DNA of 64,000 bases, taken from Escherichia coli. GTDB lineage: Bacteria > Pseudomonadota > Gammaproteobacteria > Enterobacterales > Enterobacteriaceae. How positions within the stretch are numbered: position 1 is the stretch's first letter; every line of letters starts with the position of its first letter. A program made the translations under genes and the position numbers. Under the pieces are notes generated by a model, which saw nothing but the letters and a program-made list of their open reading frames with translations, had not been told where the DNA came from and ran no database searches. The stretch is taken from assembly GCF_030013595.1 (NCBI RefSeq), contig NZ_CP122768.1; one strand, 5' to 3'. Shown here one piece after another: positions 1 through 2,479 of this stretch.

Positions 1-65
1 AAACGTACATGCGGGACAGGCGAACGCACTATTGTACTTTGATATAGACTATCAGTGAGGTTAAT

Positions 66-590
66 ATGACACGATATTGGAATTTAATTGCCCTATTATT
101 CTCTGTGATATCTATGTCATCCATTGCTGATGATACAACGCATGCAGGTGTTGTACGCATCGAAGGAATTATAACAGCAAAGACTTGTATTGTTGCCGAT
201 GAGTCTAAAAATTTCACAGTTAACATGCCTGATGTTCCCAGTTATACGGTGAGAAATTCAGGGAGTGTTACTGAAAAAATTGGCTTCTCTTTAAAGTTAA
301 CCCGTTGTGGCAGTGATGTCAGTAATGCCAATGTCACGTTTGATGGAATACCAGTTAGTGAAGACGCAGCCCTATATAAACTGGAAGAGGGCTCAGTCGA
401 TGGGTTAGCACTGGCTATTTTTGATAACAACAGACAAAGTATTAGTAATGGTATAAAGAGTACAAGTTATGCCCTTACACCATTGGTAGATAATACATTG
501 CATTTCTTTGCTGCTTATAAAGCTATAAAAAATGATGTACAACCAGGAGATGCGAATGCATCAGTTTCCTTTATCGTCACTTATGATTAA
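66..590 (+). CDS. fimbrial subunit-like protein (chaperone-usher pilin family)
   Basis: 174-aa ORF with N-terminal signal peptide, a Cys pair and a C-terminal strand ending SFIVTYD typical of pilins; GAGG ribosome-binding site upstream. Family assignment from sequence features, not a search. Confidence 0.75.
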   Translation: MTRYWNLIALLFSVISMSSIADDTTHAGVVRIEGIITAKTCIVADESKNFTVNMPDVPSYTVRNSGSVTEKIGFSLKLTRCGSDVSNANVTFDGIPVSEDAALYKLEEGSVDGLALAIFDNNRQSISNGIKSTSYALTPLVDNTLHFFAAYKAIKNDVQPGDANASVSFIVTYD

Positions 591-1335
591 CGTGCTGATA
601 TGCATTTTAATATGTTGCACAAATGCGCAGGCAGGAGTTGTTGTTGGCGGTACTCGTTTTGTTTACCCAGAAAAGCAGTCATCAATTTCGGTCGAGCTTA
701 AAAATACTGCCAGTAAAGATATGCTGGTTAAAATTTCCGTGACACCTGATGATGGACGTCAGTTAAAAGGGACACTGGAATCCCAGCCTTTACTTCCAGA
801 TAAGGCGTTTATTGCCACACCACCATTATTGGTACTTAAACAAGATAAAAATACCAAAATAAGAATCAATCGCGTGGGGGGGCAGTTACCTATAGATCGT
901 GAGAGTTTATTTATACTGAATATTGCAGCGTTACCTGCTCAGGAACAAAACTCACAGCTTAAGAATGAAAATCAACTCCAGGTGGCTGTACGTAATAGGA
1001 TGAAAATATTTTACCGCCCAGAGACGTTATCAGGTAATCCACTTGACGCTTATCAACAGTTACGCTGGTCGCGAAACAATGAAGCTGTCACCGTTTTTAA
1101 CCCTACGCCCTGGTATGTGACACTCTATAATTTATCTATTGATGGTAAAAGCATAAATGGTGGCATGGTTGCACCATTTAGTCATCGCCAACAGGATTGG
1201 TGTCAGCGGCAAGGATATTGTGAGATTAACTGGCAAACACTAGATCTTTACAATAATGCCTTACCCGTATGGAGCGTAAAATTAAATGTTTTACAAAATA
1301 ATGCTATTATGGGTGCAGTAGCGATACATGGATAA
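550..1335 (+). CDS. periplasmic fimbrial chaperone (PapD-like)
   Basis: ORF track 532..1335; start moved to internal ATG at 550, which follows an AGGAGA site and precedes a signal peptide. Contains GTRFVYP and FYRP chaperone-like motifs. Overlaps the end of the upstream pilin gene. Confidence 0.75.
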   Translation: MRMHQFPLSSLMINVLICILICCTNAQAGVVVGGTRFVYPEKQSSISVELKNTASKDMLVKISVTPDDGRQLKGTLESQPLLPDKAFIATPPLLVLKQDKNTKIRINRVGGQLPIDRESLFILNIAALPAQEQNSQLKNENQLQVAVRNRMKIFYRPETLSGNPLDAYQQLRWSRNNEAVTVFNPTPWYVTLYNLSIDGKSINGGMVAPFSHRQQDWCQRQGYCEINWQTLDLYNNALPVWSVKLNVLQNNAIMGAVAIHG

Positions 1336-1345
1336 CTGGAGAAGC

Positions 1346-2479
1346 ATGATGCTTACTTATTTTTGGGGAAATATAAAAGCAATTTGTATATTGTTTGTTC
1401 TTTTAGTCAGTAGCTGCTATAACATAGTATATGCTGAAGATATGGGACGGGATCGCGCCTTTTGTTATCCTGGTGCACCAGGTAATAATACTACTCCTGC
1501 GACATTTTCTTATAATTTTGGTACGGTAATTGTCTCAGATGTTAATAATAATTCGCCTGGGACAGTATTACCCTCGCAGGACTGGAAAATAGGGCATTAT
1601 AAGGCTTATTGTAATTCTCTGGATGATTATGAGGTTTATTTTTCTGGTGTTTCTGGGATTGATCCGTCAGGAGCGTCTGGTGATCATCAGGGGAGCGATA
1701 TATTTATTCCTTTGACTCATGAAATATCTGTCTCGACACATGTAAAGCTCTATAATAAAAATGGCACAATGACAGATAAGGCAGTACCTTTTGACAACTA
1801 TAGCACCAATTATCCAGCAGACAGAAGTAAACCATCAAGTTGGGCCTCAGGAACAGAAGGTTATATAAAAATCAGACTTGATAAAAAAATAATATCCGAT
1901 ATATCAATAAATAACGTATTGCTGGTTTCTTTGTATGTCAGCCAGTTTCCAACAGAGCACGGACCAATTCCAGTATTTAATGCTTATATTGGCAACTTAA
2001 ATATTGAAGTTCCACAAGGTTGCACAATTAATGAGGGAACTAGTTTTACCGTTAATATGCCGGATGTCTGGGCCAGCGAATTAAGTCGGGCTGGTGCTGG
2101 AGTAAAACCAACAGGTATTTCTCCAGTGGCAACCACTATTCCGATAAATTGTACGAACAAAGATATTGATGCCGTAATGACGCTGGTTTTCGATGGCAAT
2201 ATTTCATCAACGAGAGATGTTAATGGTCGGCAAAGCATTATTCAGGCGGAGGATAACCCCGACGTTGGCATTATGATTATGGATAGCCAACAGGAATCCG
2301 TAGACTTAAATGCATTGGCTGCGCATGTTGGTGTGCCATTTAAGTTAGTTGAAAACCAGGCTGAGTCAGCTCAGACGGCAGATGTGACTTTTCTGTCTCT
2401 CCCTGTAAGTACCACAGGGCGACGCCCTGCTGCAGGCCGTTATAATGCCCTGGCTGTTTTGCGGGTGGAATACCAATGA
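1346..2479 (+). CDS. putative two-domain fimbrial adhesin or minor subunit
   Basis: ORF track 1328..2479; likely start at ATG 1346 after a GGAGA site. Signal peptide; C-terminal ~150 aa resemble a pilin domain and share the motif FTVNMPDV with the 66..590 product, ending RVEYQ; the N-terminal ~200 aa are unassigned. Confidence 0.65.
   Translation: MMLTYFWGNIKAICILFVLLVSSCYNIVYAEDMGRDRAFCYPGAPGNNTTPATFSYNFGTVIVSDVNNNSPGTVLPSQDWKIGHYKAYCNSLDDYEVYFSGVSGIDPSGASGDHQGSDIFIPLTHEISVSTHVKLYNKNGTMTDKAVPFDNYSTNYPADRSKPSSWASGTEGYIKIRLDKKIISDISINNVLLVSLYVSQFPTEHGPIPVFNAYIGNLNIEVPQGCTINEGTSFTVNMPDVWASELSRAGAGVKPTGISPVATTIPINCTNKDIDAVMTLVFDGNISSTRDVNGRQSIIQAEDNPDVGIMIMDSQQESVDLNALAAHVGVPFKLVENQAESAQTADVTFLSLPVSTTGRRPAAGRYNALAVLRVEYQ

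Follow-up and report, generated by a model that had tools for sequence, protein, structure and literature searches.

An apparently usher-less fimbrial gene set beside glpD in Escherichia coli is a window-edge effect and very probably the distal part of an Auf operon

We analysed a stretch of 64,000 nucleotides of Escherichia coli DNA (RefSeq assembly GCF_030013595.1, contig NZ_CP122768.1), referred to throughout as the window, whose first 2479 positions carry fimbrial genes next to glpD. A first-pass annotation, made from the letters of the sequence, had described these genes as a pilin, a chaperone and an adhesin without an usher, and had proposed either a degenerate operon or one with an unusual gene order whose usher lies upstream of position 1. 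We found here that window positions 1-2479 very probably constitute the promoter-distal part of the Auf chaperone-usher operon aufABCDEFG, comprising the last 58 nt of aufD followed by aufE, aufF and aufG. The apparently usher-less set is an edge effect: an ordinary and previously named operon is cut by the window boundary. The locus is already known, as the described seven-gene Auf fimbrial operon.

Results

The fimbrial cluster runs past the left edge of the window

A fourth fimbrial gene ends within the first positions of the window (2-58), a feature missed in the first-pass annotation. Positions 1-58 (plus strand) are the 3′ end of an aufD-like minor pilin gene cut by the window edge, of which the last 18 codons and a TGA stop codon remain. 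Positions 2-58 translate to NVHAGQANALLYFDIDYQ*, which is identical to the C-terminus of a fimbrial protein of 177 amino acids (aa) in the genome NZ_CM149870.1 (locus 15525-16058). The operon therefore continues past the left edge.

Close relatives of the source strain indicate what lies there. Megablast comparison of window positions 1-3000 with 5,426 complete E. coli genomes returned 228 in which at least 80% of this span was covered. The best match was NZ_CM149870.1, which differs solely by one extra G in a homopolymer. In this genome, glgP is followed by genes for a pilin of 234 aa, a chaperone of 250 aa, an usher of 863 aa and the 177-aa pilin, and then by genes for a pilin of 174 aa, a chaperone and an adhesin of 376 aa, before glpD is reached. 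The usher gene (locus 12904-15495) stops 563 nt before the equivalent of window base 1 and is separated from it only by the 534-nt aufD; its product scores above the curated cut-off of NCBIfam model NF011740 (1075.7 versus 995 bits). The isolate AF40 has all seven operon genes in the same order, each annotated as intact. We infer that glgP of the source strain would be directly followed by the promoter, aufA, aufB and aufC, all within the ~4.7 kb that precede window position 1.

The observation that no usher of ~850 aa is encoded in the 64-kb window was itself accurate. Every open reading frame (ORF) of at least 750 aa is a housekeeping gene, namely malT, malP, feoB, yhgF and mrcA, as named by K-12 synteny and the annotation of the near-identical genome. 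This absence, together with the sporadic pseudogenes of the operon in other strains, could be read as the sign of a truly usher-less or degenerate remnant, whether as an operon in decay or as orphan subunits relying on an usher encoded elsewhere. We give this explanation almost no credence. The fourth fimbrial gene shows that the cluster runs past the edge, and all three ORFs that lie wholly within the window are intact. Moreover, the two halves of the operon match in number. At identities of at least 95%, the upstream half (aufA-aufD, including the usher) was found in 228 genomes and the window half (aufE-aufG) in 227 of the 5,426, strain 042 among them; the totals at any identity were 783 and 785, respectively. 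These matching counts imply that the two halves travel together. There were no partial-only carriers among the window-type matches listed, and neither half's search of the complete genomes revealed a population of usher-less trios. Of the two possibilities raised in the first-pass annotation, then, only the upstream usher survives. A degenerate operon is contradicted by the intact window genes and by the seven intact annotations of AF40, and an unusual gene order by the agreement with the published order aufABCDEFG (PMC12928451). What is found immediately upstream in the near-identical NZ_CM149870.1 is a complete conventional operon with its usher.

Three intact genes within the window

Between positions 66 and 2479 there are indeed three co-oriented and tightly packed genes, all on the plus strand and all intact. 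The first (aufE-like, 66-590) encodes a minor pilin of 174 aa with a match to the Pfam Fimbrial domain (PF00419, E=1.9e-17); its best NCBIfam matches are to FimF/FimI/BcfF-type minor subunits, each under its curated cut-off. The second (aufF-like, 556-1335) encodes a second periplasmic chaperone of 259 aa with PapD_N (E=1.9e-29) and PapD_C (E=3.5e-7) domains. Although its longest ORF runs from 532, the start is the ATG at 556, which is preceded by an AGGAGA Shine-Dalgarno sequence and is the start used by the Prokaryotic Genome Annotation Pipeline (PGAP) in identical genomes. The GGTRF (Arg) and K(I/L)FYRP (Lys) motifs of AufF are kept in alignments with AufB and with YcbF, the second chaperone of the Ycb/Elf system considered below. 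In PapD-family chaperones, the arginine and lysine of such motifs anchor the subunit and are functionally important. The third gene (aufG-like, 1349-2479, with alternative starts at 1346 and 1328) encodes a putative two-domain tip adhesin of 376 aa, with a C-terminal Fimbrial match (E=1.9e-19). In the 383-aa ORF that begins at 1328, this match covers only residues 224-383, and the N-terminal ~190 residues of AufG form a separate region without a Pfam match. The translations of the window's Fimbrial-domain proteins end in ...IVTYD and ...RVEYQ, each with a penultimate tyrosine. The earlier assignment of the trio to a pilin, a PapD-like chaperone and a two-domain adhesin is thus upheld by Fimbrial, PapD_N/PapD_C and C-terminal-only Fimbrial matches, respectively. 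The genes are closely spaced, with gaps of 7 nt between aufD and aufE and 13 nt between aufF and aufG, and aufE and aufF overlap by 35 nt. This arrangement suggests a single transcript with coupled translation.

The operon corresponds to Auf of CFT073 and strain 042

The region between glpD and glgP (GR 24) has been described as the auf operon in extraintestinal pathogenic E. coli from birds and humans (PMC12928451). In that description AufA is the major subunit, AufD and AufE are minor subunits, AufB and AufF are chaperones, AufC is the usher and AufG is the adhesin (PMC12928451). The Auf fimbria of the uropathogenic strains CFT073 and UTI89 goes back to Buckles et al. 2004, as that work is cited in PMC5956150 and PMC12928451. 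We saw the operon at the glgP-glpD position in four genomes (NZ_CM149870.1, CFT073, 042 and AF40). The annotations of NZ_CM149870.1 and AF40 are colinear with CFT073, in the order major pilin, chaperone, usher, two minor pilins, second chaperone and adhesin. Comparison of window 66-2479 with CFT073 locus 7395-9858, and of NZ_CM149870.1 locus 11285-16058 with CFT073 locus 2693-7444, gave protein identities over near full length of 84.6% for AufA, 77.2% for AufB, 80.6% for AufC, 77.6% for AufD, 71.9% for AufE, 67.2% for AufF and 84.0% for AufG. Together with the gene order of CFT073 at this site, these identities establish the window genes as aufE, aufF and aufG.

The window lineage and CFT073 have in common the glgP-glpD site, the seven genes in order, the two chaperones, the terminal adhesin and nearly equal protein lengths. 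Colinear homology extends over the whole island and takes in the glgP-aufA intergenic region as well as a downstream relic described below. They differ in that the window allele is only ~73% identical to CFT073 in its nucleotides and 67-85% in its proteins, in that a G7 tract in the window aufF has no counterpart in CFT073 aufF, and in that three genes between aufG and glpD in CFT073 are represented in the window only by the relic. Such differences could point to a distinct fimbrial type other than Auf, in other words to a related gamma-1 operon that was separately acquired at the same chromosomal site. The low nucleotide identity and the 67% identity of AufF, set against 93-99% in the flanking glgP and glpD, would be in keeping with this, as would the reduction of the three genes after aufG to a relic. 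We nevertheless consider a fimbrial type other than Auf very improbable. The insertion site, seven-gene order, near-identical protein lengths and colinear homology of the whole island are shared with CFT073 Auf, and the next-closest system compared, Ycb/Elf, is much farther away in its usher (50%) and adhesin (25%) and has another locus and another order. In addition, the copy in strain 042 has already been filed as Auf by Wurpel et al. 2013 (PMC3559732).

Over aufE-aufG the window shares 99.2% identity with enteroaggregative strain 042, whose flanks and downstream relic also match but whose aufB is annotated as frameshifted. In the supplement of Wurpel et al. 2013 (PMC3559732), who sorted the chaperone-usher fimbriae of E. 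coli by their ushers, the 042 usher EC042_3692 stands in the Auf column and there is no Ycb entry for this strain. The 042-type copy is therefore not new, and the pattern of entries fits the statement of the same authors that the Auf and Ycb types are close relatives and exclude one another (PMC3559732).

Comparison with Ycb/Elf, long polar and type 1 fimbriae

Among the systems compared, the closest paralogue is the Ycb/Elf system of K-12 (elfADCG-ycbUVF), which is likewise a seven-gene chaperone-usher operon with a second chaperone and whose usher is 50% identical to the Auf usher over its full length. Ycb/Elf was ruled out as the identity of the locus by this level of usher identity, by its location between ssuE and pyrD, by its gene order (elfA-elfD-elfC-elfG-ycbU-ycbV-ycbF, in which the adhesin gene follows the usher and the second chaperone comes last) and by an adhesin that is only 25% identical to AufG. 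AufF is nearer to YcbF (39% identity) than to AufB of its own operon (33%), and the two chaperones of the Auf and Ycb/Elf operons therefore appear, from these identities, to be old and distinct classes.

Among solved structures, only that of E. coli LpfD (Protein Data Bank entry 5AFO) resembles AufG in sequence, and phmmer matches it to AufG residues 112-374 (E=9.2e-18). The match takes in the complete pilin domain and a portion of the receptor-binding domain, and this homology supports a two-domain tip adhesin. The likeness has its limits: identity is low, and with the NCBIfam LpfD model AufG reaches 85.5 bits, where the cut-off is 412 bits. The lpf operon also has one chaperone and a different chromosomal location. 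For the type 1 (Fim) models of NCBIfam, the scores against the cut-offs were 95.8 versus 472 for FimH, 136.4 versus 327 for FimC (with AufF) and 956.5 versus 975 for FimD (with the usher). As every Fim and Lpf model in NCBIfam remained under its cut-off, the locus is neither a type 1 nor a long polar fimbrial operon, and both identities were rejected.

Two allelic lineages at a single site

By sequence comparison, the window copy belongs to the second of two Auf allelic lineages, that of strain 042 and not that of CFT073 and UTI89. The CFT073-type lineage, which includes both of the latter strains and shows ~73% identity to the window, was found in 558 of the 5,426 complete genomes. From just past the glgP stop codon to the repetitive extragenic palindromic (REP) elements beside glpD, the island is 64-84% identical between the two lineages, whereas the flanking glgP and glpD are 93-99% identical. 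The island has a GC content of 41%, versus 53% in the flanks, and the glgP-aufA intergenic region falls to 27%.

Between lineages, AufA (85%) and AufG (84%) are the most conserved proteins and AufF (67%) and AufE (72%) the least. Surface-exposed subunits would be expected to diverge fastest. The two lineages might encode fimbriae that differ in function, and might go back to a long-maintained ancient dimorphism or to import from a different species; the divergence of AufF and AufE would then fit a role for AufF as a dedicated, co-evolving chaperone. The distribution of divergence, highest in AufF and AufE, lowest in AufG and AufA and confined to the island, leaves a small chance that this is so, and we regard a functional dimorphism as improbable. 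To our knowledge, a dedicated role for particular subunits has not been proven for the second chaperone of any gamma-1 fimbria.

The right-hand end and the junction with K-12 sequence

In K-12, glgP and glpD are separated by a spacer of 615 bp that contains yzgL and REP elements, and the aufEFG genes are absent. The earlier suspicion that the trio is strain-specific accessory content was thus well founded. On these alignments, the operon is a low-GC (41%) island in place of the K-12 yzgL spacer. Its right boundary is a REP-containing spacer at 2811-2985, which directly precedes glpD (2986-4506, minus strand) and is 94.9% identical to the 175 nt of the K-12 spacer that lie nearest glpD. In the alignment of the spacer to K-12, the island sequence to the left of 2811 had no match. 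A simple scan between aufG and glpD found no convincing intrinsic terminator, only the REP elements.

Just inside this boundary, at 2645-2817 (plus strand), lies a relic of a gene for a membrane protein, disrupted by frameshift; in CFT073 this gene is the third of three extra ones between aufG and glpD (blastn identity to this CFT073 tail, 77%). The relic spans the first ~68 codons of that gene, whose product is apparently membrane-spanning, and its tblastn match to the 201-aa CFT073 protein (residues 11-68) falls in two reading frames. NZ_CM149870.1, 042 and AF40 all carry a PGAP pseudogene annotation for it. In CFT073 itself (locus 10032-12120), the three genes are tightly packed and unannotated, and encode proteins of 236, 255 and 201 aa; none had a meaningful match in NCBIfam or any match in PADLOC.

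A homopolymer in aufF

The extra G that distinguishes NZ_CM149870.1 from the window falls in a G7 homopolymer inside aufF (884-890, plus strand), where the window keeps the reading frame. Both NZ_CM149870.1 and a sister isolate have G8 and hence a frameshift, and PGAP calls the NZ_CM149870.1 gene 'frameshifted'. Among 60 sampled carriers probed with 101 nt spanning the tract, 58 had a span of G7 length, the other two being one +1 variant, which comes from the same study as NZ_CM149870.1, and one -1 variant (G6). This near-uniformity argues against a phase switch. Phase variation through the tract was rejected, and the variants are better explained by a rare lesion or by misassembly of the homopolymer. 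Elsewhere in the NZ_CM149870.1 record, gntT is annotated as frameshifted (locus 34578-35001), while the corresponding window ORF (18577-19893) is intact and encodes 438 aa; this may be a further homopolymer or assembly difference in that record.

Other differences from K-12 along the window

Three further differences from K-12 were observed at a distance from the fimbrial locus. An IS200/IS605-family element of 705 nt lies between envZ and pck at 32132-32836 (tnpA ORF at 32235-32744, minus strand). K-12 has no such element at this site, and similar copies occur in around half of complete E. coli genomes at 1-35 per genome. At 62293-62323 the fructoselysine operon frlABCDR (K-12 3499692-3504933, ~5.2 kb) is absent, leaving ~29 nt between the yhfS side and the yhfL/cysG side. 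Finally, the 3′ end of rpnA (22514-22729) is a 216-nt segment without a K-12 match that gives a 297-aa product with an altered C-terminus; this single-copy allele is common to 895 complete genomes, including UTI89.

Discussion

By analogy with type 1, P and Lpf fimbriae, the window-lineage Auf operon would be expected to encode a chaperone-usher fimbria with AufG at its tip. The Auf subunits would be exported through the inner membrane by Sec and capped in the periplasm by AufB and AufF, with donor-strand complementation filling in the unfinished immunoglobulin-like fold of each subunit. Polymerisation, through donor-strand exchange, would then fall to the AufC usher. AufG would be the first subunit to enter and would come to lie at the tip, followed by AufE and AufD as adaptors, with AufA forming the shaft; the N-terminal domain of AufG is the presumed receptor-binding module. 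Given that aufF directly precedes aufG, it is tempting to speculate that AufF may act as the chaperone of the adhesin or of the minor subunits.

Several points weigh against the reading of the locus as an Auf operon. The presence and intactness of aufABCD in the source strain are deduced from near-identical genomes. Sporadic lesions occur in related copies: aufB is frameshifted in 042 (locus 3553-4304), aufF is frameshifted in NZ_CM149870.1, and aufG has an internal stop in the CFT073 assembly NZ_CP058222.1 (locus 8728-9858). A single-sequence AlphaFold2 model of AufG has a mean predicted local distance difference test (pLDDT) score of 33.9 and does not confirm the fold of the N-terminal region (residues 30-111). 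At ~73% nucleotide identity to CFT073, the lineage could arguably be named 'Auf-like'. In CFT073, moreover, Auf showed neither a fitness defect in mouse urinary tract infection nor an effect on biofilm, and published work has not identified its function (PMC5956150).

The operon might be complete but silent or inactivated in the source strain, for example through a lesion in aufA-aufD or through strong H-NS-type repression of the AT-rich island, in which case ordinary growth would yield no fimbriae. Single-gene lesions are present in three sequenced carriers, and the very low GC content of the glgP-aufA intergenic region would be compatible with repression. It has been reported that aufA is poorly expressed in human urinary tract infection samples and that strong up-regulation, for the CFT073 allele, was seen only with TosR overexpression (PMC5956150). 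Conversely, the three genes in the window are intact, AF40 has all seven annotated as intact, and 58 of the 60 sampled genomes keep the G7 tract in frame. On balance we think silencing or inactivation unlikely, though it deserves more weight than the other alternatives discussed here.

Reading the window genes as aufE, aufF and aufG of an operon that extends past the window edge removes a false anomaly, and shows that window edges need to be checked before a component is called missing. The modest residual value of the locus lies in the picture it gives of Auf as two deeply diverged alleles at a single chromosomal site, with the 042-type allele present in ~4% of complete E. coli genomes and the CFT073 type in ~10%.

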